DNA from: a virus
Taxonomy: Duplodnaviria > Caudoviricetes
Length of the DNA stretch: 55,495 nt
Reading direction: 5' to 3' (one strand)
Virus record (IMG/VR): IMGVR_UViG_3300009071_000002
Span: 1-55,495 of that record
Position 1 is the first letter of the stretch; the number at the start of each line of letters is the position of its first letter. Position numbers and translations under genes: made by a program. Below are positions 17,085 through 55,495 of this stretch, in pieces. The notes under the pieces were generated by a model, which worked only from the letters and a program-made list of their open reading frames with translations, did not search any database and had not been told where the DNA came from.

Positions 17085-20000
17085 TTAAAAAAACAATTCA
17101 TCTAGTTGTTCTTGGGTTGCTTTATCTTCCATTTTAATATTTTGTAAACTATCTATTTTAGATGTGTCAGAATCTGTAAAATCAAAATTATGTTCTAATT
17201 CAAAATTTATATAATTATCACCCCACAAATTAGACGAAGCTCCTGCAGCTCTTAAACCTGTAGCACCTTCCCAATACGTTTTTAACGCAGAATCATTTAT
17301 TTTACCTGTAGTAAAAACACCGTGCATTAAATCTGTTAATCTTGGATCTCTTGCCATAAGCATAAATATATCAAGATTTTTACCTCTCAATTCTCTAACC
17401 CATATTGATCCACCAATCCACCAAGGAGAAACAACCCTTCTTAAATAAGACATAGTATTTGCCATGTGTTGATTAGTAGTATTAGGTGTAGGTAAATCTT
17501 GTAATCTAACCTCAGCTGACATCTTGTTTGCCCAAGAAGAATTATCTATACCTAAATCTTTCATAGTGTGCATTTCAGTATTTATGTATATAGATCGTGC
17601 TTTTTCCATATGTGAAGCATCTTTAAATAAACCAAATCTTGAGTCTTGTAATAAATTAGGAATCCTGTCCATTTCTGCAACAGCTCTTTCAGTTACAGGC
17701 ATAGTAACATATTCTTTTCTAACTCTGTTACTTCCATCTGGCATAACACTGCCTGTAGTGTAACTTCCATCAGGACTAATAATTCTTACACTGGTACGGT
17801 CTTTAAAACCTTTTTCTAAAACACGATTTATAAAATTGTAAGCATCTTTAACTCCTTTTTCACCATTTAATTTTTTTGCGTATTGTATATACTGCCCAAT
17901 GTATTTTCCGTCTTCAGATGTTAAAAAATCATATGCTTCGTAAAATCTAAATGGTCTTTTCTGTCCAGAAGTATCTATAGCCATTGCTTTTGTAAAAGAT
18001 TGAAAATCAGTTATTTGACTTTTAACTTTATTTTTTCTTCCTTTTATTTCGTTTACAATTTTTCGGTCTGCACGTTTAATTGTAGTCATGTATTGTGTAT
18101 AAGCACGCCTTGTTGCAGCATCGTTGTTTACAAGAGTTCTAATAACTGCATCCGTATTACCGATGCTGTTCATACCACTAAAATTAGTAGTTGCCATTTC
18201 ATCTGTAATAGTTAGCATAGTACCCGTTTTAAGATTTAATTTATCTATGTGCTCATATGTGCCACCCGCCATATTAAACAATGACATTTCATCAGAAAAA
18301 TTTTGAATATTATCTAAAATTGTAGTAAAATCTTGTATAGTTGCTTTTTTAACTGTTGCTGATTTAAAACCGGGCCCCTTTTTAGCTGCTCCTAATATAC
18401 CAACACCTTCTACAGCAATGTCAGCATACTCTCCTTCAGCAACCCTTTCTAAAATACTGGTCGTTCTTTTATCAAAATAAAGTCTATTGTTTATTTTCCA
18501 ATCTATTAACGCTGAAAGTTTACTAGCACTTTCTGGATCTACAATTCTTCGTGTAGTTGCTTCAGTTCCTACTGAAAAACTGTTGGTAACCATAGCCGTA
18601 CCTTTTGCTTTGTCCATAGGTAAAGTTATTATTTCACCAAATCTTTCGTTTAGCATAGAGGCTGCTTGGCTTGTTTTTCCGTCAAAAATCATGTCTACAA
18701 CAGTATCTAACCATTTTTCAGGAGGAGTAGTATACATTTTATTACTTGGATTATCTATACTTTTTTGAAATCCTTTAACTCTAGAATCTACTCCTGTATA
18801 CCTAGCTAATGAATTTGCAAACGCCCCAGATTTTGATGCATGAAAATGATTACCATAAATTTCTCCAGCACGAAGTATTTTTTGCAACACAGCACCATTA
18901 CCACTTGATAATTCTTTTTGTAAAATATCTATAGTTTTACCATATGCTTCAAATATAGGATTTCCTTTTTCTCCAAAACTTCTTCTACTTCCCGATAAAG
19001 TTTTATGTATATTTAACACTCTATCTGCAGGTATTCTAAATCCTTGTTTAAGAAGTTGTGGCACATACTCATTTAAAATATCTCTAACAGCTTCTCCTTC
19101 ATTTGAATCTTGAAGTATAACACGGTATAAATTTGTAAAATCATCGTATTTTTGAAGTGCACCTACTCCTGACTCCTCTATAAGAAGTTGTCTAATATCT
19201 TTATAATCTTGTGGAGTTGTATTTTTCTTTAAAGTTTGCATTAATTGAAGTTCAACAACTTCACCAATTATATTACTTATGTTTGCAGCATCTTTTGGTC
19301 TAATTGTAGCTTCACTTTGGTTTACTTTAAAAAACGACTGATCTAAAGTTTCAAAGATAGAACTTAATTTTACAGGTTTATTTTTTAAATCGCTTTTTAC
19401 TTCTTTATATATGTCGTCTGCATATTTATTTATCTGTCCTGCACGTTGCTCATCCAATTGTTGAAACTCTGCACCAGCACTTTTATCGGTCCAACTATTT
19501 GGATTTTCTCTTAATCTCCCTACAGTTGCTGTAAGATTTTTATTATTTTTTATTCTAGTGTCTAATATTAATTTAGAAATTTCTTCTTTTTCTACGCCTA
19601 TTAGTTTTTTAACAGCTATCCTTGCGTCAAGTATTTGTTCACTAATATTATTATTTCCTATACGGTCAAGAGCGTGTGGCGAAGTTAGAAGTTCTTGTTC
19701 TAAAGCTAATACAGTATCTAATTCTCCCAACTGTGCATCAGCTCTTTTTATTTCAAGATTTCCATTTCTAGACATTTGATTTAGGTGCGTTTTAATATTT
19801 CTATATTCTTCTCCATCAGGTAATGCTTTAAATAAAGGTTCTAAAGCTCTTAACAATTTCATAGAACTTTCTCTTCTTGCTTCAATATGTTCTGCAGCTT
19901 TTAAAGCCTTTTTAGCATCTACACTAAATCCTAAATTAGCTGCCTCCCCCACAATGTTATCCATTGCTTTTAAACCTACCAAACCTTCTAGTTCTACCAT

Positions 20001-41575: not shown

Positions 41576-43210
41576 TTAATAATTTGATCCTCCGTTACCT
41601 TCGTTAAACCTTCCAACTAAATTATAATATAATATGTCATATGGGTTATCTACATCCCTTACTTTTGATTGACTGGTAAGATTTCGTGTATGGCGGCCGT
41701 AATAATCTATCGGAGATGACGTATCTGGTTGCCCCGTATCAACAGTTCTATAAATTTCAGTAGGAACTCCATCTCTAGTCAATTCTTGACCTATACCCGC
41801 TTTTTTTGCATCATATAATCCGCCACGTTCCATAGCTCTTTCTCTATAGTGTTCATTAAATTGTACCATAGCAGCTTCATATTCTTTTTGTGACCCAATT
41901 TGTTTTCCATTTACTTTAGGTGATCCTTGCATAAATCCTTTTATCTCCATTATAGATCGTATCATCATAGAAGCATCTGCATAACCACTTTGATTTATAT
42001 TTTCATATCTTCCTAATCTAGAATTTTCAGCTAAAGCTTTTTTATATGCTGGCTCATAAAATTTTAACCCAAAGTAATCTTTAAACGTATTTAAATAATC
42101 CGAAACTGCTGCTGCACCCGCTTGTCCAGATTCAGTTCTGTAACCATTATAACCATACCCTGAAGTTGCTTGAAAATAGTTATTTTTAAACGCTATATCA
42201 GCTCCACCTTTTGCATATTTAGGTTTCCCCCTTCGGCTTTTTAAAAAACTTACTAATCCTTTAAAAGCTCCATACGCTACTGCTACAGGGTTTCCAGTAA
42301 ATATTGCATATGTAGCTATTGCAGCATCTACTTTACCCTCTGTAGTTTGTGGGATACCTCCTTTAAAGGTATAGTACAAAGCAGCTGCTTTAATAGCGTA
42401 TGGAGCATACTTAGATACATTAGCAGCAATTTGTTCTCCAGTTCCCGGGGGAATATACGGAGCTAACCCCGTTTGTGTTCCCATTCCACCGTAGATACCT
42501 TTTGCTGCATCAAATGCGTAAGCAGACATAACTTGTCCGGTTGTAGATAGAGTAGAGGCAAATTCTGCCCCGTATGGGCCAGAGTAGTCTAGTGCAGCTA
42601 AATTACACGGTGGAGCATCAAACCTTTCTGGTGGATCAAAAAGAGATTTTACTTCACTACCTACTTTTCTTGCTCTATTAATATCCCCAAAAGTATCTTG
42701 CAAATCTTGCATTTGTTCCTCTAACCAAGATAAATTTTCTTGCTTAGGTCCCATTTGCTCCCCACCCTCTTCTAGTGACATGCTGTCATCAGTAAGAGAA
42801 ATGTCTTCTAACATCTGTCTATCTTCTATAGTTACAGTATCACCTAATTGTGTTGCTGTAATATCCTGCTGTTCTAAAGCATTTAGATTTGCTACAGGAG
42901 TTTCTGGAAAAATGTCTCCAGCGTAGGATGTGTACTTTGATCTCTGTTTAGCTTCTTCTTCACGTTTCTTTTTTAGAGCCTCTGGACTTAGTCCTTTTAC
43001 TAAACTATCTAAGCCGTACCCTAAAAAATCTTCTCTCTTTAACGATACGGAAGGAGCGTCATCTAAGGATACACCTTCCAATGAAGCTTTTTGACTACCT
43101 TCAAGCTCTTCTTTAAATTCTTTTGAAATTTGTTCAGAAGAAGATCGTTCAAAAGCTGTGACAGTAGGGTCTTGTACTTTTTGAAATGGTGCTAACGCAT
43201 TAAGAGACAT
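41576..43210 (-). CDS. Hypothetical late protein (544 aa), probable virion/ejection protein
   Basis: Long ORF; central hydrophobic helices followed by KYAKGG. Confidence 0.6.
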   Translation of the reverse strand: MSLNALAPFQKVQDPTVTAFERSSSEQISKEFKEELEGSQKASLEGVSLDDAPSVSLKREDFLGYGLDSLVKGLSPEALKKKREEEAKQRSKYTSYAGDIFPETPVANLNALEQQDITATQLGDTVTIEDRQMLEDISLTDDSMSLEEGGEQMGPKQENLSWLEEQMQDLQDTFGDINRARKVGSEVKSLFDPPERFDAPPCNLAALDYSGPYGAEFASTLSTTGQVMSAYAFDAAKGIYGGMGTQTGLAPYIPPGTGEQIAANVSKYAPYAIKAAALYYTFKGGIPQTTEGKVDAAIATYAIFTGNPVAVAYGAFKGLVSFLKSRRGKPKYAKGGADIAFKNNYFQATSGYGYNGYRTESGQAGAAAVSDYLNTFKDYFGLKFYEPAYKKALAENSRLGRYENINQSGYADASMMIRSIMEIKGFMQGSPKVNGKQIGSQKEYEAAMVQFNEHYRERAMERGGLYDAKKAGIGQELTRDGVPTEIYRTVDTGQPDTSSPIDYYGRHTRNLTSQSKVRDVDNPYDILYYNLVGRFNEGNGGSNY

Positions 43211-43445
43211 TCTTTCTCATTTCTTTAAAATTATCCTTCAACTTGAGGAGCATTTCCAGTAAACCCGCTTTCCCCTGCAGTCGGTACACTTCCAGTTCCG
43301 ATGGTGCTACCACCAGTGCCGCTAGGGTCTGCTTGTGGAGGTTGTTGAGGTACTCCTCCAACACCTGCCATTCCAGCTTGTCTTGGCTGAGGAGCGGAGT
43401 TAGGGCCTTGAGGGGCTCCTTCCGGTTGTTCTGGTTGTTGGGCAT
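43200..43445 (-). CDS. Small conserved protein overlapping the portal 3' end
   Basis: AAAGGA RBS; E.YR.QGK...L..LL.LK motif typical of the post-portal gene. Confidence 0.65.
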   Translation of the reverse strand: MPNNQNNRKEPLKALTPLLSQDKLEWQVLEEYLNNLHKQTLAALVVAPSELEVYRLQGKAGLLEMLLKLKDNFKEMRKNVS

Positions 43446-45342
43446 CTTGTAATCCTTTAAGTATTTCAGCGTATATCTGTGCTTCGTTTACATCGTTTAC
43501 TAAGCTGTCAGGATCAATATCCTGTGATATAGCTAGTTCTTTTAACAGGTTTGGTATTTTAATAAATGGTGCAAGCATTGGATTTCCTACAGTTTGCAAC
43601 AATGCTGTTAATCTTTGTGAACGTACTTCTTTTTGCATTACAGAAGCAGCTCCTTTTGGTTTAATTTCAAGATCTCCTTCTATATCTGGGTTATCTTCAT
43701 TAAACTGCATGTTCCATTGAAACAATGCCTCTCCTACAGGTTTAAGAAGATAATCATCTAAGTTTTTAATAACTGTTTTTATAGATAATCCTGAAGAGCC
43801 TAGCAACATAGATAAACCTGCAGCAGTTCTGCCTGTACCTGTTACACCAGTTTGACCATGCATAATGCTTGGTATGCCCGTTTCTTCATCAGCAAGTTGC
43901 CTTGCTTTGTCATACATTTGTATATTTTCACCAGCGGTGCTAGGAAATTTTATAGCGTTTACAGCAGTCCCAGTAACTCCTGACTGTCTTCTAAACACTT
44001 TTCCGGGAAAAATGTCGTAATTCTGTCCGGGTACAAGGGATGTTTCATCTACATCAAATACAAGGTTGCCAGCAAGTGCTAAATTATCTATAGCCATGCG
44101 TACATGCCCATTCATTAACATCTGTGCATCTTCCATGTTTTCTGGAATACCCACACCCCATATTTGATAGGGGTTTATTTCATATGGAAATATAGAATAG
44201 GGTAATCTAGCTGGCGTAAATGGATTTATACAAGCCCTTAATATTTGACCTCCTGAAATCCAAATGTTTACTTGAACTTCATCTAAATCATCCATGTCGG
44301 CAGCTTCTTCTAATCCTATTTGTTTAGCAAAAGTAGAATCTATTGTTCCCCAGTATTCTAACACTTCGTATCTTTCACTATCTACATATGGTTGAGTTTC
44401 GTCATCACGAATTGTATCTTCAAAATACTTTTCTTCGTAATTACCACCCCCAGCAATAACTTCTCTTATTGCTTCAGGATCAAACATAGGCATATTCATA
44501 AGATTACGTAATTGGGAACGATTCATTTTATGACGTTGTATAATGTACTCACAATCATCTACATTTGTTGCAGATGGATCGGAATATACATCCCAACAAC
44601 TGACAGCTTCTAGACGAGGAACTAATTTAGGATACGGAGTGTATGTTTTTGCACCCGACTCATCTTTTTCCCATTTATGAACAGTTTTACCAAAGTTAAA
44701 TGGTCCTTTAATTATTCCTGTACCCAATAGAGCAGATTCAAATATAGCATGACGTAAAACATTTACAGCATTAGTATCTGTAAGCTGATCATGCATAACT
44801 TTTTCCATACGCAAAGCTGCTTTTTTAGCTGGAGATATTTGGGGTTCTCCCATCCTTGAAGGACCTTCTGCTAAAGGAGCGTCTGCCCCATATTTGTTAG
44901 CTAATGATCCTAAAAAATCTAAATCAGCAGTTGCTTCTGTTGCTCCCGGATTTAATTGTTTTCCGTCACCTTCAAAACCATATGGACTAGATGATATTTC
45001 ATCAGCTGGTGTTTTAAGGTGAGCAAATTCTGCAATTCCTTCTGGTACAGGAGTAGACTCTACAGTAATTGGAAATTTTTTATTAGCAAATAAAATATCT
45101 ACAATTTGACCATAAGCAGCAAGCACTTTAGTTTTAGTTATTTTTATAAATACCTTAGATTTTTCAGTACTTGTGTACTGTGTAGTAGAATCATAAATAC
45201 CCCTAAAATTTTTATACGCTTTTAACCAGCGTTGTTCATGGGTTTGTCTACCGTCTTCGGCTGCTCTCATACGTTCTTGAATTAAACCTATAAGTCCAGA
45301 GCCTTCAGCTAAGGCTTCTTTTGCATCAATTGGATCAGACAT
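43231..45342 (-). CDS. Portal protein
   Basis: S.VF.K.TKTKV.AAY, GTG..KGP, PYE..PY..WG.G and TG..RTA.G.SM motifs; between terminase and scaffold. Confidence 0.88.
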   Translation of the reverse strand: MSDPIDAKEALAEGSGLIGLIQERMRAAEDGRQTHEQRWLKAYKNFRGIYDSTTQYTSTEKSKVFIKITKTKVLAAYGQIVDILFANKKFPITVESTPVPEGIAEFAHLKTPADEISSSPYGFEGDGKQLNPGATEATADLDFLGSLANKYGADAPLAEGPSRMGEPQISPAKKAALRMEKVMHDQLTDTNAVNVLRHAIFESALLGTGIIKGPFNFGKTVHKWEKDESGAKTYTPYPKLVPRLEAVSCWDVYSDPSATNVDDCEYIIQRHKMNRSQLRNLMNMPMFDPEAIREVIAGGGNYEEKYFEDTIRDDETQPYVDSERYEVLEYWGTIDSTFAKQIGLEEAADMDDLDEVQVNIWISGGQILRACINPFTPARLPYSIFPYEINPYQIWGVGIPENMEDAQMLMNGHVRMAIDNLALAGNLVFDVDETSLVPGQNYDIFPGKVFRRQSGVTGTAVNAIKFPSTAGENIQMYDKARQLADEETGIPSIMHGQTGVTGTGRTAAGLSMLLGSSGLSIKTVIKNLDDYLLKPVGEALFQWNMQFNEDNPDIEGDLEIKPKGAASVMQKEVRSQRLTALLQTVGNPMLAPFIKIPNLLKELAISQDIDPDSLVNDVNEAQIYAEILKGLQDAQQPEQPEGAPQGPNSAPQPRQAGMAGVGGVPQQPPQADPSGTGGSTIGTGSVPTAGESGFTGNAPQVEG

Positions 45343-45357
45343 ACTGTTCCTTCTATA

Positions 45358-45603
45358 TTATGGTGTGTACTTTGAAGCACCCATTACTGTACCTAACGCA
45401 CCTGTTTGGTTTGCTGAGACAGATTTAGAGTCTTGTGTAGATTGAAATGGTCCGTTAATAGTACCGGCATTAGCACCAGCAATGCTTCCATCTAAAGCTT
45501 CACGATGTAATGAACTTTCATTAGCTTCATTCATTGCTCCTTGTTTACTCATCTGGCCCATTATGTAACCTGATTTGTAAGCTCCTGATACTCCTTGTGG
45601 CAT
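45358..45603 (-). CDS. Small late hypothetical protein
   Basis: AAGGAG RBS. Confidence 0.7.
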   Translation of the reverse strand: MPQGVSGAYKSGYIMGQMSKQGAMNEANESSLHREALDGSIAGANAGTINGPFQSTQDSKSVSANQTGALGTVMGASKYTP

Positions 45604-45630: not shown

Positions 45631-47721
45631 TTAAAATACTTCTTGTTTTTGTTCATCTAGATATATCAATTTACGACTATCTAAAATTTCTTTATCTTTA
45701 TCAGATAAAAAAGAACCTTCTGATTGTCTTAATTCTGCTACGTTTTCTTCTGTACTTGCAGGTTCCATCATAAGATTAGACCTAATTGTAATGTCTTTTT
45801 CTTCTGCAGATTTTAAATTTTTAGCCCGTTCTCCTGTATAATAATTTTCCGGAACTTCATTTGGAAATATTGCAAATTGAGCAAGTTGTTCTTCTACTGC
45901 TCTGTCTCCTTGTACTGCATATCTAATAGGTTCAAGAAGACCCATATATGGAAGTGCCTTTAGTCCTGCTTTTCCTATACCGTTTCTCCAAGCTTTTAAT
46001 CTTTGTTGAAATGTTCTTGGAGTTTCTTCGTTCATTCGCACAGGCCTACTGTCTTCTAACCTATTTTGTTCATCCATAATTTCTTCATCAGTTAAATTAG
46101 TACCTCTAATTGCATCTCTACTATCTTGGGCTTTTGCTCCCCTTTCCGCATCTATATTAAATTTACGTTCTGTTTTTCTTTTAATTTTTTCTTCTTCAAG
46201 AAATTTTTCGTTATTTGATATATCCTCTAAAGTTTCTTGATTTAATTTTGAAGCTTCAGCAAATCTTTTACGAGAATTAAGAAGAGCTTCCGACACTGCA
46301 TCATCAATATAGGCAGCATTGTTAGCATCTAAAGTGTGTAATCTACTGCTATTAGAATTTAAATTTTTAGCAAAATTAGTTTCGTGACTTTGCTCCCAAT
46401 CTATTAATGCAGCTTTTGGCATCCAACCCATAGCGTAAGTATGACGTAAAATTGCATCTTTTGCAGGTATTGCTGTATTATGTTTTACTTTAATTTCTGT
46501 TTCTGGTATAAGTATTTTACCACCAGTATTTTTGTACTCATTAATAACTCCATCTTTAGATAGTAAACTTTCTACAGAATTATAACCAGAGTAAGCAGTG
46601 TATTGATTATCTAAAATATCCATACCCGGAGTTATTATAGTTCTTAAAGCACCTTCAGTACTCATATATTTTATCATGGATACTGGAAGTTTTATACCAT
46701 GTGTTAAATTTTGATTATTAATAGCATTTTGAGTTATATAAAAAGGGTCTCCTTGTGGTAAATCTCCTCGTGCAAAAAGTGCACCAGATCTATCTTTAGC
46801 TAAATTTCTTATAAAAATTCTTGTTGGATTTTTTGTTTCATATTCTCCTAATCTTTCATTAAATACTTTAAATACTTTAGATGCATCTGTATTGTCAGGA
46901 ACATATGTATTTTTTAAATTATCTACTATTTCTTTATTTATTACAGCAGCATTTGGAAAAAGTTCTTTTCTACCATCTAATAGAGCTAACTGTCTGGCTC
47001 TTAAAACATAGTATCTTTCTAAATCTGTAAAATACGATAATCTACCTTTAGCAACATTTGCTTTTAAATTTTTAACTGCATCACCGCTATTATCTAATGT
47101 AGGATTATTTACATCATCAAAACTATCTACAGTTAACCTACTAAATTCAGCCGCTCTATCTCCTGTTAAAAATAGTAACCTAGCAGTAATTCTATCAATA
47201 CTACCTTTTGGATAAGTTTCTATATGGCGAGTTGTTGTAGCATATATATCATCTGGTATACTTGTAGGAACAACTCTGTCACCTTGACCACCAATCTTTA
47301 CGGCATAGCTACTATCTCCCGCAGATAATCTACTCATAGGTTTAACATCTGTATATTTTTCAAAAGTTGGGTCCATATAACCTTTTAATATTTTAGGACT
47401 ACCAAGTTTTTTATCTAATATATATTTTTGATTACTTAACTTTACATAATCTTTTGGAGACATATTAGCTATACGCATATCATTGTCAGGAAAACTATGA
47501 TTTCTATATTTTATCATAGTTGTAATCATTGCACTAACATCTGCTTTATTTAAACCTTTAGCAGCATTTACAGTGCCAGACTCTAAACTTTTTAATATTT
47601 TACTTTTCATATCAGCGGGTATAGAAGTATTCTGCATAAATGCTTCATAAGATTTTGCAGTCATTCCCGGTTGGGTTGTAAGCCTCTCAATAAAAAGATC
47701 TTCTACGGTAATATCAGCCAT
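45631..47721 (-). CDS. Large late protein with a tyrosine-recombinase-like catalytic domain
   Basis: ARLLFLTGDRAAEFSRL, K, LF, IFIR and LTH-x10-Y motifs in the expected order. Confidence 0.55.
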   Translation of the reverse strand: MADITVEDLFIERLTTQPGMTAKSYEAFMQNTSIPADMKSKILKSLESGTVNAAKGLNKADVSAMITTMIKYRNHSFPDNDMRIANMSPKDYVKLSNQKYILDKKLGSPKILKGYMDPTFEKYTDVKPMSRLSAGDSSYAVKIGGQGDRVVPTSIPDDIYATTTRHIETYPKGSIDRITARLLFLTGDRAAEFSRLTVDSFDDVNNPTLDNSGDAVKNLKANVAKGRLSYFTDLERYYVLRARQLALLDGRKELFPNAAVINKEIVDNLKNTYVPDNTDASKVFKVFNERLGEYETKNPTRIFIRNLAKDRSGALFARGDLPQGDPFYITQNAINNQNLTHGIKLPVSMIKYMSTEGALRTIITPGMDILDNQYTAYSGYNSVESLLSKDGVINEYKNTGGKILIPETEIKVKHNTAIPAKDAILRHTYAMGWMPKAALIDWEQSHETNFAKNLNSNSSRLHTLDANNAAYIDDAVSEALLNSRKRFAEASKLNQETLEDISNNEKFLEEEKIKRKTERKFNIDAERGAKAQDSRDAIRGTNLTDEEIMDEQNRLEDSRPVRMNEETPRTFQQRLKAWRNGIGKAGLKALPYMGLLEPIRYAVQGDRAVEEQLAQFAIFPNEVPENYYTGERAKNLKSAEEKDITIRSNLMMEPASTEENVAELRQSEGSFLSDKDKEILDSRKLIYLDEQKQEVF

Positions 47722-49343
47722 CAGTATCCAAATACCTCATTTTCCGGCACATATCGTTGCATCTGCCTACTAGAATAGTACGGTGTGCTTGCATTGTGCA
47801 AAGATCGCACCATCATCATATATCGTAACGCATCGTATGCGTGGTCGTCTGCTTTTGTGTCTACATCCTCTGGGTTGTGCTTAGATAGAGGCAATGTAGG
47901 GAGTGTTCTTACTAAATTTGTACAATTGTCCATAATTCTTACTCTTGGTTGTCCTCTGCTGTCACAAGCTAGTCTTCTATGTATTTCTATCTTTCCTGCT
48001 AGTCTGTTTCTGTCGGATGGTATCCATCTACAGCCTTTTCTATTCATTGTTTCTGCTATACTTGGACCTAGCCCTGTTCTGTTCCAACAACTGGCATCTA
48101 ATACAGATATTTGCATGGTTGGGTCGTTTCTTTCTAACTCTAAGATTAGTTCACCAAGAGCTTCGCCGGTTCTACCCTTTATATACAGCTCTCTATATAT
48201 CCAGATATTGTTATCCCAGTCTATAGCACCCCAAAGAATACAAGAAGGACTACTGTAGCCATAATCTCCGGCACGTACCCTAGCCCAACCATCAGGTGGG
48301 TCAAAGGATTCCACGACATGTAGCGATCTACTAAATTCTGTAAAAGCTGCTCCCTCTGCGACATCCCAGTCTCCTTCTAATAATCGTTTTCGTTCTACTT
48401 CTGGTAAGGAGAGCAACATAGCTTCGTATTGCCCATCTATAGCAAGATACGGATTGTCTGTCAACCTTGCTGGTATAAATTTTTTTAGAAATAAAGGTTG
48501 CCCTTCTTTTGTATGTCCTGCAGGATACCTTATTGTTTTCTGTGTGTCAAACTCTTTTGCCCAAAATGCTGATCCGGGTGGGGATGGGTCTATGTACATC
48601 TTCTTTACCCACCAACCTCCTACTCCACCGGGGTTAGCTGTGCACCTCATGTAGAGACCAAGCTGTGGATCGGTACTTCTAAGTCTAGATCTTAGGTAGT
48701 TCCACACGTATGGAGTAGGATACTGTGTTATTTCGTCTATTCCTATCCAATTAAACGCTTGTCCTTGGTATCTTGTTACGTCTCTGTCGTCATCTACGTA
48801 GGAAAACCATATTTTAGCCCCAGAAGGAAACTCCCATGTAGACTTTGCTTGCTTAAACACTGCCCCCGGCACTGCTTTCATGTACAATTGCCTACTTTTG
48901 TCTATAAGTTCGGTCAATTCTGGTAGAGTACGTCTTAGTAGTAGGCCTCTGTGGTTAGGGTTACCTACATCTCTTAAAACATCAGCAAGAAGTGCATATG
49001 ATTTGCCTCCTCCAGCTGCTCCCCCGTACAATACGTCTCTTTCTGGGCTTTCTAAGAACTCTGCCTGTGGTCCATCGTTAGATTTAAAGACAACTTCGTT
49101 CTCAGCAACGTGGTTTCGTACTTTTTCTGGTAAAGCTAGTAGTTCTTCCTCAGATATAGGTTCTTTTCCATGTCCTGAGAGAGCTGCGTCTATCTTACCA
49201 AGGCTTTCTTGTAGTTTATTTGCCCTGTACCGTGCATTTACGGCACGTTTTGATTCTTTTTTTGCTTTTGCTTTAGCGTTAGATAGTTTTGTTGATACGG
49301 ACTTGCGTATCGCTTTCCTATCCAGTTTGGCTTTCGCTGCCAT
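47721..49343 (-). CDS. terL: Terminase large subunit
   Basis: Walker A YGGAAGGGKS, Walker B IGIDE, TANPGG, nuclease DYG and DH.YDALRY. Confidence 0.95.
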   Translation of the reverse strand: MAAKAKLDRKAIRKSVSTKLSNAKAKAKKESKRAVNARYRANKLQESLGKIDAALSGHGKEPISEEELLALPEKVRNHVAENEVVFKSNDGPQAEFLESPERDVLYGGAAGGGKSYALLADVLRDVGNPNHRGLLLRRTLPELTELIDKSRQLYMKAVPGAVFKQAKSTWEFPSGAKIWFSYVDDDRDVTRYQGQAFNWIGIDEITQYPTPYVWNYLRSRLRSTDPQLGLYMRCTANPGGVGGWWVKKMYIDPSPPGSAFWAKEFDTQKTIRYPAGHTKEGQPLFLKKFIPARLTDNPYLAIDGQYEAMLLSLPEVERKRLLEGDWDVAEGAAFTEFSRSLHVVESFDPPDGWARVRAGDYGYSSPSCILWGAIDWDNNIWIYRELYIKGRTGEALGELILELERNDPTMQISVLDASCWNRTGLGPSIAETMNRKGCRWIPSDRNRLAGKIEIHRRLACDSRGQPRVRIMDNCTNLVRTLPTLPLSKHNPEDVDTKADDHAYDALRYMMMVRSLHNASTPYYSSRQMQRYVPENEVFGY

Positions 49344-50096: not shown

Positions 50097-50722
50097 TACT
50101 GGCCAGCCAAAGGATTATCTAAAGCTCTTTGTAACATTGTACGTAACCTTTCTTCTAACTCTTTAAGTTTTGTATCAAGTGCTTCGGCTCTACGGTTTGC
50201 ATCAGATTCAATTGCAGTTCTTTTGCCATCAAATCTGTCAGATGCATGGTCAATTAGATCTCGCATGTCTTTTTCTATATTTCTAAGTTCTACTCTTACT
50301 TCTTGTCCAAGTATTCTAGACCTTCTCTCTATACCAGATATTTGATCGTGAGCTTCATGTATACTTGATCTTAAATCTGTACGAATTGTTCTTGCATCAT
50401 CTTGTGCTGCACCAACTAATTCTTTTACCGCAGACATCTCTGTTTCTATATTTGTTTTTAACGAGTCTAACTCAGTCTCTACTACCGTTTCTATGCCAGT
50501 TAATTTTTCTTCTAGCACATCAAGTTTTATAGTAAAGCCAGTAAGATCAGGAGCAACGTAGCCATCTATCTTTTTCTCCATTGCTACCCAACGTGCGTAC
50601 CCTTCAAAACCAGCCCAAAGACTTCCTCCAAGTGTACCAAGTAAAGGTAGGATTAGCAGTAACTTACTGCCTTTAACTTTAATTCCTTTATATTCTACCT
50701 CACTACTCATACTGTTGTCCAA
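50096..50722 (-). CDS. Membrane-anchored coiled-coil protein
   Basis: N-terminal TM then long heptad repeats ending ALDNPLA. Confidence 0.75.
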   Translation of the reverse strand: MDNSMSSEVEYKGIKVKGSKLLLILPLLGTLGGSLWAGFEGYARWVAMEKKIDGYVAPDLTGFTIKLDVLEEKLTGIETVVETELDSLKTNIETEMSAVKELVGAAQDDARTIRTDLRSSIHEAHDQISGIERRSRILGQEVRVELRNIEKDMRDLIDHASDRFDGKRTAIESDANRRAEALDTKLKELEERLRTMLQRALDNPLAGQ

Positions 50723-52424
50723 TCATTTTTTCTATTTGTAGATTTGATCGTACACTAAGGTAACTTCCTAGGGGGTCAGGCATAATAGAATCTGTATATA
50801 TATCTTCTGAAACATACCACGTTGGCTGTACAACTGTTGCTGCATTTTGGTATGTTGTTATGTTTGGACCAAGGGCATTAACAAGAGCAAGGGTTGTAAT
50901 CTGTGATACAGGGTCGTAGCTATTTGGTAACCCTGCTATAATTTGATTTGCTTTTTCTTGTTTCTTTTCCTGCTCTTTAGTTGGCTTTTCCTCCACTGTT
51001 TCTTTTGGTTTTTCCTCATTAACTTCCTTAGCTACAGGTTTTTCTTTTGGTTCTTCTTTTGCTACTTTTTCTTCCTTTGGTTTGTCCTGCTCTTTAACAA
51101 CTTTTTTAACTTTAACTGTATTGCTAGTAGCTGTCTCTTCTTCTGAGCTACTCTCCTCTTTAACTTCTTCTTTAACTTCCGGAGTTGTTTGCATTGGTTT
51201 ATCAGCAACTTCTACAGTCTCCTTCACTTCTTCTTGTGCAACTTCTACTGGTTTAGGTTCAGGTGCCTCTATTTTTGGTTCTTCTACTGGTTCACTCATT
51301 GGTTCTACGTTGTTTATAACAACTTCTAACTCTTGTTCTGGCATCTTGACTGCTACAGTTTCTACTTCCATACCTATATTCTGTATTTCTTCTACCATAG
51401 TTTCAACCTCTACCATCACCTCTTGCATGGACATTTCCCCCATATCCACATCCTGAAACAAACCCTCAACGACACCAACACTTAAAGTTTCAGGCATACC
51501 CTGTACATCATCCATACTACCCATAGAAATTGTAGGCTTTAAATCAAAATGCATTACCGTATCCATGTTTTGCATTTCTGTTTCCATCTCTTGCTGTTCT
51601 TCTACAGTAGCACTTTCATATGTATCCATTAGTTCTAACTGTATAGACTCTTGCATTTGCATCGGCTGGACTATTTCAATCCAAGTATTTACAACTGTTG
51701 TTATGACATTGTAGTTTACTGTATAAGATACATTGTCAAACAAAGGGCCGGTAGCAAGGTTTGTGTTATCTACCCCGCCAACTCTTACGAATACTCTATC
51801 AAGACTGTTATCAAAATCATAGGAGCCTGTATACGTAGTGGCATTGTTGTTGTTCTGTAAGTTTATTTCTCCGGTGTCCCACTGTAGTACGTTATTGGAA
51901 TACCCTTTAGTTTGGAAATATGCACTATCTTCTGTGTCATAAAAGTGCATAGATAATTCCCAATCTAGTGCACCCCCTTGTGTTATGTGAAAGTTACTTA
52001 TATCTACATACTGGTCAAAGGTAGTTAAAGTAGACCCCGTAATCTCAGCGCACTTACCAGATCCAATTTCTTGTGAGGGACAGGTACTGTGCATCTTTGC
52101 TGGTCCAATTCCTCCCCAGTCTGAATCCATGTCTCCTTCTTTGGTGTTGCCCACAAGACCCTGATCTGCGTGGAGGATGTCTCCGGTTGTTTGGTTTTCA
52201 ATAATTGTAATCGTTTGAGTAACTGTATCAATGTGGCCTTCACCTAAATGTTCTGTTTCTACTTCTTCAACGATTGTTTCGCCTTCTTCTAGTAGTTCTG
52301 CCCGTGCTACACTACAATAAAAAAAGCAACAATAACAAACTGCCACCAATGCTAAGACCAGTAGCTTCTTCTTCAGTGGGTAACCAGTCCACATCTGTAA
52401 CATTTTCTTCAACCCATTTATCAT
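50703..52424 (-). CDS. Secreted acidic protein with Glu/Pro/Lys-rich stalk
   Basis: Signal-peptide-like segment ending VARA; beta-rich domain then low-complexity region; start uncertain. Confidence 0.7.
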   Translation of the reverse strand: MINGLKKMLQMWTGYPLKKKLLVLALVAVCYCCFFYCSVARAELLEEGETIVEEVETEHLGEGHIDTVTQTITIIENQTTGDILHADQGLVGNTKEGDMDSDWGGIGPAKMHSTCPSQEIGSGKCAEITGSTLTTFDQYVDISNFHITQGGALDWELSMHFYDTEDSAYFQTKGYSNNVLQWDTGEINLQNNNNATTYTGSYDFDNSLDRVFVRVGGVDNTNLATGPLFDNVSYTVNYNVITTVVNTWIEIVQPMQMQESIQLELMDTYESATVEEQQEMETEMQNMDTVMHFDLKPTISMGSMDDVQGMPETLSVGVVEGLFQDVDMGEMSMQEVMVEVETMVEEIQNIGMEVETVAVKMPEQELEVVINNVEPMSEPVEEPKIEAPEPKPVEVAQEEVKETVEVADKPMQTTPEVKEEVKEESSSEEETATSNTVKVKKVVKEQDKPKEEKVAKEEPKEKPVAKEVNEEKPKETVEEKPTKEQEKKQEKANQIIAGLPNSYDPVSQITTLALVNALGPNITTYQNAATVVQPTWYVSEDIYTDSIMPDPLGSYLSVRSNLQIEKMIGQQYE

Positions 52425-52874: not shown

Positions 52875-53291
52875 CTAATCCTCACCGCTGTCAACCACCG
52901 TTGGCATTGCTGACTTGCTTGGCATAAGTACAATTCCGTGCAGTGCCTTTATGTCGTGCTCTTGTTTTTCTATTTTGCCCAGCCCTACTCTGTCTAATAG
53001 AGTTTGTGCTGCCTTTAGTCTAAGTTCTTGTCTAGGGTTTAGTCCGTCATCGTTCATGGACTCTACCACTCTTGATACGGCTGTCGCCGAATTAACGGCT
53101 AGTTCTCGTTTAGATATGTCTACGATTTCGTCTGCAAGGCTTTTAACCAACCATGTTCTAGAAGAAGGAGAGTAACCGGCTTCCTCACAGGCTAGGGCTA
53201 TGTCGCCTTTGTTTACGAAGAGACAGTTGAGAAACTTTTGTTGCTTCTCGGTAACTTCCTTTTTTTTCTCTGCTAAGAGTGCTGAAGTCAT
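52875..53291 (-). CDS. terS: Probable terminase small subunit
   Basis: TEKQ.KFL...A...AGYS HTH and AA..LLDR.G motifs. Confidence 0.7.
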   Translation of the reverse strand: MTSALLAEKKKEVTEKQQKFLNCLFVNKGDIALACEEAGYSPSSRTWLVKSLADEIVDISKRELAVNSATAVSRVVESMNDDGLNPRQELRLKAAQTLLDRVGLGKIEKQEHDIKALHGIVLMPSKSAMPTVVDSGED

Positions 53292-53455
53292 CCGTACGTC
53301 TTGGCCTTTCTCATTCCGCCACCCATAGCGTACGTCTTCTTGTGGACCTTGCCACCACCCATCATCTTTTTCTTTTTAGAAATAACACCTTTACCCATAA
53401 GGATATCCTTCTGAGTAATTTTACCGTCACCGGATAGGTCTGGAAATTTAGCCAT
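53288..53455 (-). CDS. Basic 55-aa protein with EF-hand-like loop and GG motifs (not in ORF track)
   Basis: MAKFPDLSGDGKITQKDILMGKGVISKKKKMMGGGKVHKKTYAMGGGMRKAKTYG read by hand. Confidence 0.75.
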   Translation of the reverse strand: MAKFPDLSGDGKITQKDILMGKGVISKKKKMMGGGKVHKKTYAMGGGMRKAKTYG

Positions 53456-53726
53456 ATGTTTTTGCCTTTCTTATACCACCACCCATAGCGTACGTTTTCA
53501 TTGCCTTGCCACCGTATGCCATCTTTTTCTTTTTAGCTCTGCCACCGTAGGCTTTGTTACCCGGCCCACGAGGTCCAGTTTTTCCTTTAAAGACAGCAAA
53601 GTTATTTATCAGTGCATTTGCAGCAGAATCACTCATTTTACTTAATTGGGTTTGACCAACGCCTGTTTTTTCAAGGGCTTTCATAGTGGCGGCTAAATCT
53701 ATATTGGCGGGTAATTTAAATTCCAC
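53448..53726 (-). CDS. Basic protein with three A-x-GG motifs
   Basis: KAYGG, MAYGG, YAMGG; shares its C-terminus with the downstream ORF. Confidence 0.7.
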   Translation of the reverse strand: MEFKLPANIDLAATMKALEKTGVGQTQLSKMSDSAANALINNFAVFKGKTGPRGPGNKAYGGRAKKKKMAYGGKAMKTYAMGGGIRKAKTYG

Positions 53727-53729
53727 CCT

Positions 53730-53804
53730 CTAGATCTCCGCACACGCATAACAATTAATTTCTAGTCCTACGGCTACTTCTATTATTCTTGGTGATTTCC
53801 ACAT
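53730..53804 (-). CDS. pqqA: Coenzyme PQQ precursor peptide PqqA
   Basis: MWKSPRIIEVAVGLEINCYACAEI (24 aa): W-x-x-P leader and G-x-E-x-x-x-Y core; AAAGGA RBS 8 nt upstream. Confidence 0.85.
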   Translation of the reverse strand: MWKSPRIIEVAVGLEINCYACAEI

Positions 53805-54005
53805 GGTATGTATCCTTTTATATATATATTTATTTTGATTGGGTTGTCTTGGGGGATACGGAGCATAGATGCCCCCTCCGGAGATAGTATATTAATTGTG
53901 CTACCCCCCAAGGACTTAAAATTATGTAACACAAACCGTGACCCCCTTGTGTATATATTTTGTTCTTGTGGGGGCGTGAGTGTACTTGTATTACATGTAC
54001 CTACC

Positions 54006-54033
54006 ATTATACACCGTATATAGAAACTGTCAA
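54006..54033 (-). promoter_or_regulatory. Consensus sigma70 promoter TTGACA-N16-TATAAT driving the late block
   Basis: Both hexamers perfect on the minus strand. Confidence 0.8.
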
Positions 54034-54070
54034 GGAAAAAGTGTTTTTATTATGTTTTTTTATTTTTTAC

Positions 54071-54098
54071 TTGACAAGTCTGAAATACGGTGTATACT
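54071..54098 (+). promoter_or_regulatory. Sigma70 promoter TTGACA-N16-TATACT facing a non-coding region
   Basis: Near-perfect hexamers; shares ATACGGTGTATA with the divergent promoter. Confidence 0.7.
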
Positions 54099-54520
54099 GA
54101 GGGTACTCCCGTTAAGGTAAACCACCCCGTATGTTAACTACAGGTTAACTGTTGGTTCTACTTAAAGTATGCACAGGTTTTACTGGGGAATATCCTGTAG
54201 GAATAGCCCTCTGGTTGGACTGGTGGTTGGCCCCCAAAATTACTGGTAGGGTGGTTCAAAAATATACAAAATTGATTGTGGTTGCATACACATGTACGGG
54301 TACCCCCCAGTGCCCCTATAGGGGGGATTACATTAATAATGTCCAATATTTCCAAGAGTTTACCAGACAATGACAACATAAATTAACAAACAATACTACA
54401 TAAACATTTACACCTGTCCGCACGTGGTTTACATAATGACAATTTTTTGGTTTATCTGGTTGTCAACCTTGAAGGGGGTCTATGTAGTGTATAAAAGCGT
54501 GTCTTTTCCCACCACCACCC

Positions 54521-54557
54521 AAAGAAAAACCCAGCGGTTTAAAACACTGGGTCTCTT
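54521..54557 (-). terminator. Intrinsic terminator (possibly bidirectional)
   Basis: ACCCAG...CTGGGT stem with A-run on the left (U-tract on minus) downstream of 54578..54952. Confidence 0.65.
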
Positions 54558-54577
54558 GTGGTCTATGTTGTGGTTAG

Positions 54578-54952
54578 TTAGTAGGTTTTTAAAAGATTAC
54601 CAGATGCTCCCGCCATCTTAAACAGTGGTTCTAGGTTCTCCGCCTGTTGTGGTTCAATCTGGATATCCACTCGGAAAGGGTCAGAGTTTAGGTCAACCAA
54701 TGGATACTCTCCGCTTGCAACCTTCTTCTTTACTTCCTTGTTAGGAACTCCAAGAAACATAGCAAGATATTTAGAAGTTGTTGCGGAGTAATTCCAGAAC
54801 TTAGCGTCTAGTTCTATCTTATCCGTTGCATTAATGCGCCTTGCGATTATGCTTTTGTAAGACTGAAAGTATGCATCGGAATTGTCGTTTGTTATTACGA
54901 ATTGGTTCGGAACTTCGTTCCCGTGTGGGCTAATCATATTAGAAACGTACAT
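54578..54952 (-). CDS. Conserved phage hypothetical early protein
   Basis: V.NM.S..GN.V.NQF.I...FQSY.S.I...W.YS.TT.KY motif; AGGAG RBS. Confidence 0.75.
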   Translation of the reverse strand: MYVSNMISPHGNEVPNQFVITNDNSDAYFQSYKSIIARRINATDKIELDAKFWNYSATTSKYLAMFLGVPNKEVKKKVASGEYPLVDLNSDPFRVDIQIEPQQAENLEPLFKMAGASGNLLKTY

Positions 54953-55024
54953 GTATTTTCTCCTGTTAATTAAATTAAAGTTAACTTAATATAATATTAT
55001 TCTGTACAGATTAGCAAGTAAATA

Positions 55025-55267
55025 TTATAGTTCCTCATTTTGTAAGCCCTTCACGTGGTAAAATCTTTTAACTTTCTCACGTTCTCCAAAGGTATCTATT
55101 AAAGTTATAGTTTTATAAAAGTTAGATATAAATAGCTTGTAATTATGGTCGTCTAATCTGGCTATTGCCGAATGTAAATCATCGGTAGCTTGCGCCAGAC
55201 TATCAACCCTAGTTGATGCAATACCCATATCCAATAGCATCTCTTTAAAGTATAGATTAGTTTTCAT
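55025..55267 (-). CDS. Hypothetical early protein
   Basis: AAAGGGG RBS; ATGA coupling. Confidence 0.7.
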   Translation of the reverse strand: MKTNLYFKEMLLDMGIASTRVDSLAQATDDLHSAIARLDDHNYKLFISNFYKTITLIDTFGEREKVKRFYHVKGLQNEEL

Positions 55268-55464
55268 TGGTTGCCCCTTTCGTCAGTTGTTAAAGTTAAT
55301 ATTAATAGTACACTTGAACCAACGGCAAGCAATGCCATTAGACACACAAAGTGTACAACCGCAAAATAACCTACATTTGCATCAATAACAGGTTGCATAA
55401 TTGTTAAACCAAACATGGAGTAGCAAATTAAAAACGTTGATAGTGCATACAGAAAGATAATCAT
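55264..55464 (-). CDS. Small two-TM membrane protein (spans the circular junction; 5' part also at 1..92)
   Basis: Two hydrophobic segments; AGAGG RBS. Confidence 0.65.
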   Translation of the reverse strand: MIIFLYALSTFLICYSMFGLTIMQPVIDANVGYFAVVHFVCLMALLAVGSSVLLILTLTTDERGNQ

Positions 55465-55495
55465 ATTACCAACCTCTTTGTATTATTAGTTTTAA

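Follow-up and report, generated by a model that had tools for sequence, protein, structure and literature searches.

A divergent gene between terminase and portal of a marine podovirus, with a likely tyrosine-recombinase-type product

The window analysed here, which is the whole stretch of 55,495 nucleotides, is the complete 55.5-kb genome of an HMO-2011-type marine podovirus. Between its genes for the terminase large subunit (terL) and the portal protein lies a gene, here called X, which is conserved together with its genomic context in related viruses, is exchanged in a mosaic manner and evolves under purifying selection. The protein likely has a tyrosine-recombinase-type fold. Our tentative reading, which we rate as somewhat short of even, is that X is a highly divergent representative of the tyrosine-recombinase superfamily that may bind DNA, would probably nick or rejoin it, and may be either linked to packaging or delivered into the cell.

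The known tasks of viral tyrosine recombinases are integration and the resolution of dimers and of telomeres. X hints at a so far undescribed step of DNA handling during the assembly of the virus or the infection. We found no description of the gene in the listed results of full-text literature searches, in Pfam, in PHROG or in the available sections of a comparative paper on HMO-2011-type phages (PMC9038755). The gene order terL-X-portal, the swappable cassette, the tail in common with a second protein and the dN/dS of 0.23 are new.

Gene X and its neighbours

The sequence-only reading had proposed an open reading frame between terL and portal. This frame is real and lies on the minus strand (Table 1). 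The proposed coupling of X to terL also holds, as judged from the overlap of stop and start codons.

Table 1. Coordinates in the window of X, its neighbours, its domains and its motifs
Feature	Coordinates	Strand	Basis or remark
Gene X, 696-aa ORF	45631..47721	(-)	Without Pfam, PHROG or PDB-sequence family
terL (terminase large subunit)	47721..49343	(-)	phrog_979 match E 1.7e-60
Portal protein (SU10-like)	43231..45342	(-)	SU10_portal E 7.5e-25; phrog_332 E 6.7e-77
Overlap TGATG of terL stop and X start	47719..47723	(-)	One base common to both codons
81-aa ORF travelling with X	45358..45603	(-)	tblastn
N-terminal domain of X (residues 1-147), helical; candidate for the core-binding domain	47281..47721	(-)	AlphaFold2 pLDDT ~70-90
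X residues 148-400, tyrosine-recombinase-like catalytic domain	46522..47280	(-)	Foldseek, hhalign, Atlas
R189 codon, box I L-T-G-x-R-x-x-E	47155..47157	(-)	16/16 relatives; pairs with lambda Int R212
K220 codon, end of first strand of predicted beta-hairpin	47062..47064	(-)	
R305 codon, P-T-R-I-F-I-R-N-L, candidate second catalytic Arg	46807..46809	(-)	16/16 relatives
Y352 codon, candidate nucleophile	46666..46668	(-)	16/16 relatives; pairs with lambda Int Y342
X residues 401-560, conserved extension (Y-A-M-G-W-M), then long charged helix	46042..46521	(-)	
X residues 561-696, conserved C-terminal tail	45634..46041	(-)	Common to X and 541-aa P0011
RITARLLFLTGDRAAEFSRL, X residues 177-196			
KNLKANVAKGR, X residues 217-227			
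ELFP, X residues 253-256			
PTRIFIRN, X residues 299-306			
LTHGIKLPVSMIKY, X residues 339-352			

The order terL-X-portal is kept in the loci L009, L010, L011, L028, L031 and L032, where the global identity of X is 26-49%, and it persists down to about 25% identity of X. The gene travels with a small neighbour: of the 17 related loci from metagenomes and viruses, 12 have a tblastn match to the 81-aa ORF (42-94% identity) beside X, and five cultured-phage loci, all of them without X, gave no match at E 1e-5. A near-identical copy of X (95% or more of the sampled words) is present in 18 seawater metagenome runs from 11 studies, dated 2014-2025, of which 6 possibly represent the source sample. 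In each of the RNA libraries X19 and X20 a single short contig falls within X, 197 nt long and free of differences in the former and 226 nt long with one difference in the latter, which is no indicator of transcription.

Among cultured phages the picture is different. A tblastn search of 50,697 phage records gave no match to X, and the terL-portal slot of HMO-2011, HTVC033P, HTVC115P, phiM6 and CHOED holds other genes or none, never X. Being missing from the cultured members examined, X is not part of the core gene set of HMO-2011-type phages. Since the gap between terL and portal in cultured relatives is a variable cargo slot, which is either empty or occupied by small ORFs, by phoH or by an SGNH hydrolase, position alone is no proof of a packaging role. 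X would be part of the module for head and packaging in a single branch of the HMO-2011-type marine podoviruses, in which it is probably made late and translationally coupled to terL.

Fold and candidate active site

Searches with X of Pfam, of PHROGs and, by sequence and by profile, of the PDB returned no family and no match. The family is small: it comprises 5 clusters in a search of 5.8 billion proteins, and an exhaustive search at E <= 0.001 gave 12 representatives, to which a profile search added none. None of 11 family members reached the curated cut-off of 27.1 bits for the tyrosine-recombinase family PF00589, and X itself had no match. Sub-threshold matches to this family in the region from box I to the hairpin were obtained for two of the 11, P0014 (16.4 bits, E 0.0082) and P0009 (14.9 bits, E 0.023).

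The comparison of predicted structures with Foldseek pointed to the same family. In BFVD the first place went, with E 0.041, a probability of 0.99 and a TM of 0.43, to an integrase, that of Pseudomonas phage Persinger, and among the best 25 matches 19 were named, 17 of which are integrases or site-specific recombinases. In the PDB, tyrosine recombinases made up 20 of the 42 rows listed for the full model and 15 of 42 for the domain model. No match in either library reached E <= 0.001, and TM scores were only 0.36-0.46. With hhalign, the X family aligned to a set of 131 integrases over 254 co-linear columns (P 0.0063, probability 5.9%), and this alignment placed R189, G342 and Y352 in the same register as R212, G332 and Y342 of lambda Int. 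Against a profile of 11 integrases box I alone was aligned, at a non-significant E of 0.089; single proteins gave no significant match either (lambda Int E 0.11, Cre E 0.11, TelN E 0.89). R189 was paired with lambda R212 in the alignments with single lambda Int and with the 11-integrase profile as well. Finally Atlas, which searches for protein-language-model neighbours, assigned residues 148-400 a score of 0.94 against named clusters, although scores of 0.9 or more also come from 4-10% of shuffled proteins; 19 of its 30 matches fall in a set whose leading cluster has PF00589 in 37% of its members.

Because five different methods, each giving a weak result, agree on one family and one register, we hold with considerable confidence that X likely has a tyrosine-recombinase-type fold. 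The DNA breaking-rejoining fold of the sequence-only reading is likely in view of the dominance of integrases in the Foldseek lists and the retention of the Arg-Lys-Arg-Tyr set; no search supported it at a conventional threshold. A chance likeness, with X being an all-new helical protein of another fold, would account for scores that all lie under the usual cut-offs, for models built on 11 sequences (mean pLDDT 65.7 and 75.9) and for the Atlas scores of shuffled proteins. It would leave as coincidence the common register of the five methods, the dominance of integrases in lists from two structure libraries and the fact that the invariant residues are exactly those that the family needs, and we regard it as quite improbable. 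The additional likeness to protelomerases and topoisomerase IB that had been suggested was not borne out, as both are poorer matches than integrase/Xer. The hhalign comparison with TelN contained no meaningful stretch, no protelomerase occurs among the listed Foldseek rows and the genome region named in the sequence-only reading lacks a long palindrome. As for topoisomerase IB, the His is missing, and integrases precede the Deinococcus enzyme (2f4q), which is ranked 29th at a probability of 0.08.

The succession of helices and strands predicted for X fits the catalytic domain of tyrosine recombinases. The AlphaFold2 model of residues 148-400 has a pLDDT of 75.9 and a pTM of 0.77; as noted, the input was limited to 11 sequences and the full model has a mean pLDDT of 65.7. 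Upstream of this domain, hhalign aligns residues 52-147 co-linearly to the N-terminal portion of integrases of the lambda type (the P of 0.006 refers to the whole match). Downstream, the structure prediction agrees with the claimed helical C-terminal tail, in that the C-terminal half is modelled as long helices, among them one at 472-538; P419 and W433 in the extension are unchanged in 15/16 relatives.

The five motif strings quoted in the sequence-only reading are all present in X and in the order given (Table 1). Conservation was counted in 16 relatives of X with identities down to about 25% and in a second alignment of 11 sequences. R189, R305, G342 and Y352 are unchanged in all 16 relatives. 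The assignment of R189, in the motif T-G-x-R-x-x-E, as the box I Arg is supported by its neighbours, with G187 conserved in 16/16 and E192 in 15/16 relatives. Likewise Y352, about 10 residues after G342, occupies the expected position of the Tyr nucleophile. K220 is unchanged in 11/11 sequences of one alignment and in 12/16 of the other, in which the remaining four have a Lys nearby. It lies at the turn of the predicted hairpin (strands 214-220 and 223-230), and hhalign sets lambda K235 three residues further on. Both K220 and Y352 fall in stretches of the models with pLDDT <50, so that the geometry of the active site is beyond checking in them.

The second catalytic Arg depends on how the motif is read. 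R305 lies at the start of the predicted helix 301-317, and its pairing with lambda R311 is a reading of P-T-x-I-x-I-R-x-L against lambda P-T-F-H-E-L-R-S-L; hhalign places the lambda H-E-L-R about eight residues downstream and leaves R305 unpaired with R311. ELFP does not correspond to the H-x-x-R motif. The first His is indeed replaced, as had been noted: position 302 is occupied by I, V, T, K or A, with I302 in 2/16 relatives only. The His of the L-G-H string is not a feature of the family, since H341 is kept in only 2/16 relatives. The residue that pairs with the second His of lambda Int (H333) is I343 and not H341, and this position, at which the superfamily has a His or Trp after the conserved Gly, is occupied by I, M, V, R or G, with a hydrophobic residue in 14/16. 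Of the expected Arg-Lys-Arg-His-Tyr set, conservation was seen for R189, for the candidate second Arg R305, for Y352 and largely for K220, and failed for the His. On these alignments the motif match in X exceeds what would be expected by chance. Because both catalytic His are missing, the activity of X is uncertain.

Divergence, cassette exchange and the C-terminal tail

X is far less conserved than its neighbours. It is 49% identical in a pair of loci in which the portal proteins are 96% identical, and 32% identical in another pair with 89% for terL and 86% for portal. The change is abrupt at the level of DNA: in the comparison with L009, identity is 93% in terL, 54-71% over most of X and 74-87% in its tail, and downstream of X it is 82-98% in 26 of 27 bins and 73% in the remaining one. 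The values of dS are 0.97-1.28 in the N-terminal parts of X, compared with 0.36 for portal and 0.44 for the tail. Identity amounts to 67-80% in the tail, as against 15-67% in the remainder of the protein. These profiles indicate that the first ~580 codons of X are a swappable, hypervariable cassette. Compared with an 87%-identical relative, X has an overall dN/dS of 0.23, which indicates a working gene under purifying selection. Among four parts of the protein the N-terminal domain has the lowest value (0.15) and the catalytic part the second-lowest (0.18).

The tail connects X with a second protein. P0011, an unrelated-looking protein of 541 aa, occupies the slot between terL and portal in the way X does, and a tail of about 110 residues is common to both; hhalign of A1 with P0011 in the tail region gave an E of 1.1e-15 over 109 columns. 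For the N-terminal 420 residues of X against P0011 the E was 0.44, and homology is not claimed. A tblastn search of the window and of all loci found the tail only in homologues of X and P0011, and the idea that it is a targeting tag of several proteins of this phage was dropped on this result. By eye, P0011 contains the strings T-A-G-L-R-Q-E and L-G-H...Y. Its box II region matched integrases only with an E of 0.091. A predicted complex of the portal protein with residues 560-696 of X scored 0.00, which is no answer and speaks neither for nor against binding.

The exchange of the cassette bears on whether X is an enzyme at all. The protein might be an exapted, catalytically dead recombinase fold that retains its phosphate-binding Arg, Lys and Tyr just to bind DNA and has a structural, DNA-organising or host-directed function (e.g. 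counter-defence), with the N-terminal part engaged in an arms race. Exchange of a cassette between phages is a pattern typical of host-interaction genes, and the loss of both His positions, a divergence far beyond that of terL and portal and the accessory cargo in the same slot of cultured relatives all agree with such a function. The strict conservation of R189, R305 and Y352 across relatives with as little as ~25% identity is hard to explain without chemistry, and the low dN/dS of the catalytic part, close to that of the N-terminal domain, also argues against a dead fold. We consider this explanation possible but doubtful.

Proposed role and comparison with known systems

According to our tentative reading of X as a divergent, DNA-handling member of the superfamily, a helical N-terminal domain would be followed by an integrase-like catalytic domain, with R189, K220, R305 and Y352 and no His, and by an extension of about 300 residues. 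In this extension a conserved block would be followed by a long charged helix and then by the conserved tail of ~110 residues. X would bind the DNA of the phage and probably nick or rejoin it through Tyr352. It may act during DNA packaging, or after it has entered the cell together with the genome. The tail would anchor the protein to a partner that is itself conserved, while DNA specificity may be set by the 580 swappable residues at the N-terminus.

A more specific version is that a tyrosine-recombinase-derived enzyme was recruited into the head and packaging machinery of abundant marine phages, as a counterpart of baculovirus VLF-1. The tail would then dock to the packaging vertex or procapsid, and the exchangeable N-terminal module would cut and rejoin the phage's own DNA during packaging or just after injection, for instance in circularising the genome or sealing its ends, with alleles swapped among co-circulating phages under diversifying selection. 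This version is, in our judgement, doubtful.

That X is not an ordinary integrase, as the sequence-only reading had it, is supported by its place in the late operon, its coupling to terL, its length of 696 aa and a genome that contains no match to PF00589 at E <= 1. It could in principle be the phage's real, very divergent lysogeny integrase, given its recombinase-like fold and the temperate members among HMO-2011-type phages mentioned in the available text of PMC9038755. The same text describes the integrase of these phages as a recognisable tyrosine integrase upstream of the replication module. X, in contrast, is a late gene with coupling to terL, and its product has twice the usual size and neither His. 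The surroundings of X, viewed without a dedicated scan, showed nothing that resembles a tRNA or an attP site. We regard a lysogeny integrase as highly improbable.

The genome ends in an exact repeat of 123 bp, and thus was assembled as a circle or concatemer. This repeat would suit a soluble late recombinase that resolves genome multimers, formed by replication or recombination, before packaging in the manner of Cre or XerCD, without a tie to the capsid and simply co-transcribed with terL. The evidence for the fold applies to it equally, and a precedent is gp143 of the virulent phage phiCbK, as far as described in the available text of PMC3556154. A podovirus that packages concatemers has no obvious need for resolution to monomers, and a homologue of T7 endonuclease I (Phage_endo_I, E 4.1e-38) is already encoded at 12579-12950. 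In addition, no candidate recombination site for X was found, and multimer resolution leaves the 300-residue extension with its tail, the fixed adjacency to terL and the swapping of alleles unexplained. We regard it as unlikely.

The endonuclease I homologue was also the reason to reject X as a junction resolvase. The palindromes at 54.1-54.5 kb, which had been suggested as a substrate, did not survive inspection, as this region has no large palindrome. The sole inverted repeat of 30 nt or more within 53000-55495 lies at 54005-54099 and corresponds to two divergent, back-to-back sigma-70-like promoters; Rfam matches near 54 kb were all below the gathering scores. The idea of a telomere site was abandoned with this promoter pair. 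Together, these results indicate that X is neither the integrase nor the junction resolvase nor the protelomerase of this phage.

Should X be an active DNA enzyme with a link to terL and portal, it would add a step to assembly or infection in a marine phage group that ranks among the most abundant. Its minimal Arg-Lys-Arg-Tyr site without histidines could be used for mechanistic study, and the sharp boundaries of the cassette make X a clear natural example of allele exchange at the level of domains in an otherwise conserved late operon.

The closest known systems are the integrase/Xer/Cre proteins (PF00589). They have the same order of motifs, with the Arg in T-G-x-R-x-x-E, a Lys in a hairpin (in X the candidate K220), a second Arg where a helix begins (in X the candidate R305) and a Gly that precedes the Tyr by ten residues, and the same succession of a helical N-terminal and a catalytic domain; they are also the best Foldseek and hhalign partners of X. 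Unlike them, X lies below the Pfam cut-off, has lost both His and reaches 696 aa with a C-terminal extension of 300 residues. It also differs in being late, coupled to terL and built around a hypervariable cassette, in a phage without lysogeny genes.

The role that we propose for X is that of VLF-1 of baculoviruses and nudiviruses, which the available text of a 2024 structural study presents as a protein of the tyrosine-recombinase superfamily that has been enlisted for the assembly of nucleocapsids and the packaging of the genome and not for integration (PMC11654684). According to that text, tyrosine recombinases had not been implicated in packaging or virion formation beyond baculo-like viruses. 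By analogy X may have a packaging role, although the two proteins have no sequence relation and belong to different virus realms; nudivirus VLF-1 models appear in the Foldseek list at ranks 42 and 45, as weak matches with probability 0.08-0.15. The small tyrosine recombinase gp143 of the virulent Caulobacter phage phiCbK, for which its authors propose a function in the processing of replicative intermediates (PMC3556154, available text), resembles X in being a recombinase-family protein of a phage without known lysogeny. It differs in that it is a recognisable catalytic core of 208 aa in the replication module, whereas X has 696 aa, is not seen by Pfam and is located in the packaging module.

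The topoisomerases IB of poxviruses and bacteria have the common fold and an Arg-Lys-Arg-(His)-Tyr site; X is without the His, and its N-terminal domain is integrase-like. Vaccinia topoisomerase IB is carried in the virion. Protelomerases such as TelN of N15 (631 aa) are large phage relatives of tyrosine recombinases with extra C-terminal domains. A functional analogy, apart from any relation of sequence or fold, may be drawn with head-internal enzymes that are delivered with the genome, such as SPP1 gp7/Mu F-type proteins, T4 internal proteins and the Dar proteins of P1. Head-internal accessory proteins of this kind are encoded in head modules and combine a short conserved targeting part, which serves as an anchor, with variable effector parts.

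Distribution and divergence of the terminase-portal slot

The 696-aa ORF under study (X) lies between the large terminase gene (terL) and the portal gene; the stop codon of terL overlaps the start codon of X in TGATG. X has no family in Pfam or PHROG, no PDB sequence relatives were found with a single sequence or a profile as query, and tblastn against 50,697 phage records matched nothing. Its family is small, with 5 clusters in a set of 5.8 billion proteins and 12 representatives in one of 1.84 billion, and a profile search of the family gained no further members. X is thus outside known families by ordinary searches. Near-identical copies (at least 95% of sampled words) occur in 18 runs of marine or seawater origin, drawn from 11 studies between 2014 and 2025; 6 of these runs may be the source sample, and in two runs the whole terL-X-portal stretch is covered by DNA contigs.

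The window portal has 44-52% identity to portals of HMO-2011-type Pelagibacter, Roseobacter and Puniceispirillum phages. The order terL-X-portal recurs in five related loci (L009, L010, L011, L031, L032), where X has 26-49% global identity, and in L028, where X is alike in the tail only. X is absent from the cultured relatives: terL adjoins the portal gene in HMO-2011 and CHOED, three or four small ORFs occupy the slot in HTVC033P and HTVC115P, and in phiM6 it contains phoH, small ORFs and an SGNH hydrolase. Because the cultured relatives vary in the occupant, the slot in the wider group is one for cargo; in one branch of the HMO-2011-type group, X occupies it stably. The 81-aa ORF between X and the portal gene, for which no Pfam or PHROG family was found, has tblastn matches (42-94% identity) in 12 of 17 related loci bearing X or the second slot protein, P0011, and none at E 1e-5 in five cultured-phage loci.

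X residues ~580-694 match the C-terminus of P0011 (hhalign E 1.1e-15); the rest of this 541-aa protein gave no significant hhalign alignment with X. Within the X relatives P0004, P0005 and P0014, conservation is likewise highest in the tail, and the C-termini of other branches (P0007-P0009, P0015, P0016) differ from it. The tail may serve in docking. By eye, P0011 has more canonical recombinase strings (T-A-G-L-R-Q-E, G-D-L-R, F-L-G-H...Y); its alignments with integrases were non-significant (E 0.091).

Divergence is far faster in X than in the genes beside it. Identity to L009 is 49% for X and 96% for the portal; the values for X, terL and portal are 32%, 89% and 86% in L011 and 28%, 74% and 75% in L028. 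DNA identity to L009 is 93% at the terL end, 54-71% over 47750-45974 and 74-87% over the tail; past the tail it is 82-98% in 26 of 27 bins and 73% in one. The first three parts of X have a dS of 0.97-1.28, compared with 0.44 for the tail and 0.36 for the portal, a contrast which indicates that an older allele was replaced by recombination, rather than fast protein evolution alone. In the comparison with L006 (87% identical), X has an overall dN/dS of 0.23 (0.15 in the N-terminal domain, 0.18 in the catalytic part, 0.24 in the middle and 0.40 in the tail); terL has 0.063 and the portal 0.10. Judged by these ratios, X is a constrained, working gene, with a constraint below that of the core genes. 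The 544-aa and 573-aa genes (35-90% and 40-83% identity between related phages, respectively) are likewise far more divergent than terL and portal.

Features of the window and of related loci
Feature	Coordinates	Strand	Basis or remark
X, 696-aa ORF	45631-47721	minus	
terL	upstream of X		phrog_979, E 1.7e-60
portal	downstream of X		SU10_portal, E 7.5e-25; phrog_332, E 6.7e-77
81-aa ORF	45358-45603	minus	polar, Gly/Ser/Ala-rich; between X and portal
544-aa gene after portal	41576-43210	minus	no family match
573-aa gene upstream of terL	50703-52424	minus	no family match
1709-aa ORF	17085-22214	minus	no Pfam or PHROG family
Phage_endo_I homologue, T7-type endonuclease I (Holliday-junction resolvase)	12579-12950	plus	E 4.1e-38
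Pyr_excise match, pyrimidine-dimer DNA glycosylase of T4 DenV type	2040-2588	minus	N-terminal 93 residues, E 1e-8
Terminal direct repeat, exact, 123 bp	1-123; 55373-55495		sequence identity
Direct repeats, 55 nt and 33 nt, ~160 nt apart	53285-53536		ACCACCACCCAT-type motifs
Near-consensus sigma-70-type promoter, TTGACA / 16 nt / TATAAT	54033-54006	minus	12/12 consensus positions
Near-consensus sigma-70-type promoter	54071-54098	plus	11/12 consensus positions
P0011, 541 aa	L028 7093-8718; L027 5542-7164		same terL-portal slot in related phages

Fold and putative active site of X

A tyrosine-recombinase fold is likely for X: five weak lines of evidence from different methods agree. This agreement speaks against the rival view that the likeness is coincidence, in favour of which stands the absence of a threshold-passing match in every search.

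The five strings that the sequence-only reading had taken for recombinase motifs are all present in X (residues 177-196, 217-227, 253-256, 299-306 and 339-352). G187, R189, R305, G342 and Y352 are unchanged in 16 of 16 relatives, down to ~25% identity. All 11 sequences of one alignment keep K220, as do 12 of 16 in another, where the rest have a Lys nearby. Conservation did not extend to the catalytic His; both positions are variable, with I302 and H341 each kept in 2 of 16.

PF00589 matches two of 11 X-family members below the cut-off (P0014, E 0.0082; P0009, E 0.023), both over the stretch from box I to the hairpin. The X-family profile aligned with an 11-integrase profile in box I alone (E 0.089) and was co-linear with a 131-integrase profile over 254 columns (X residues 52-362; P 0.0063, probability 5.9%). 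The latter alignment pairs R189, G342 and Y352 with lambda R212, G332 and Y342, and I343 with lambda H333; R305 is not paired with lambda R311, and lambda K235 falls three residues past K220.

AlphaFold2 models, built on an alignment of 11 sequences only, have a mean pLDDT of 65.7 for full-length X and 75.9 (pTM 0.77) for residues 148-400. The predicted order (helix, G-x-R, helix, beta-hairpin, two helices, a helix that begins at R305 and a short Y352 helix) fits a tyrosine-recombinase catalytic domain. Integrases dominate the Foldseek match lists, but no match reached E <= 0.001 in any library. Against the PDB, tyrosine recombinases, including XerH, Cre, lambda Int, XerD, XerA and Brujita Int, make up 20 of the 42 rows listed for the full model. 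For the domain model they make up 15 of 42 rows listed, plus one topoisomerase IB; the best among these has E 0.71, probability 0.60 and TM 0.37. The top BFVD match is an integrase (E 0.041, probability 0.99, TM 0.43), and 17 of the 19 named matches among the best 25 are integrases or site-specific recombinases. In the protein-language-model Atlas, the nearest named clusters to residues 148-400 score 0.94; 19 of 30 matches belong to a set headed by a cluster with PF00589 in 37% of members and 5 more to the Integrase_1 set. For whole X, integrase clusters score 0.82.

The putative active-site geometry is not readable from either model because K220 and Y352 lie in low-confidence stretches of both. 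Together with the variable His positions, this counts against full superfamily membership. A rival explanation makes X an inactive, exapted recombinase fold serving binding or counter-defence; the lost His positions speak for it and the invariant Arg and Tyr residues against it.

The closest partners of X are best placed among Integrase/Xer/Cre types. Likeness to protelomerases and topoisomerase IB, also named in the sequence-only reading, is weaker: N15 TelN gave E 0.89, protelomerases are absent among the PDB rows listed for both models, and topoisomerase IB stands at rank 29 among the rows listed (probability 0.08). A hidden integrase is an unlikely rival reading. PF00589 found nothing in the whole genome, in keeping with the claim that X is no ordinary integrase, and HMO-2011-type phages that have an integrase carry its gene upstream of the replication module, as an excerpt of PMC9038755 states. 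X was rejected as the phage's integrase on these two grounds.

The 54-kb region and other features

The palindromes reported at 54.1-54.5 kb are absent as such. The sole long inverted repeat nearby (54005-54040 with 54064-54099, 36 nt, imperfect, 78% complementary) consists of two divergent sigma-70-like promoters, and this back-to-back pair is probably what had caught the eye. The plus-strand promoter points into a stretch of ~600 bp (53980-54580), G+C-rich relative to this genome, with short ORFs only, which mirror one another (54152-54373 plus, 54158-54379 minus), and a C6...G6 hairpin (54303-54326) around the 12-bp palindrome CCCCTATAGGGG (54313-54324). Possible functions of the stretch are those of a non-coding RNA, an origin or a packaging site; its Rfam matches were all under gathering scores.

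The window is the complete virus record (55,495 bp, 37% G+C). Its terminal repeat, rather than being a physical one, may have arisen where the assembly of a circularly permuted or concatemeric genome overlapped itself. The Pyr_excise match suggests that this surface-ocean phage has a gene for UV repair. The 1709-aa ORF and the 776-aa ORF after it, which had no match in the PHROG search, are presumably internal-virion or tail proteins. The direct repeats extend over part of minus-strand ORF 53448-53726 and part of the gap separating it from ORF 52875-53291, and look like repeated Gly-rich coding units.

Possible role of X

X would be a late DNA-binding protein linked with the head and packaging module, and one that probably nicks and rejoins DNA. 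Its action on the phage genome may come during packaging, or once it has been delivered along with the genome; the tail would serve as anchor, and the specificity of X would come from the N-terminal 580 residues, which are exchangeable. A role as debranching enzyme was rejected, given the Phage_endo_I homologue. X could instead be a soluble Cre/Xer-like multimer resolver, though that role would leave the conserved tail unaccounted for. A role of the multimer-resolver type was proposed for phiCbK gp143 by its authors, according to an excerpt of PMC3556154.
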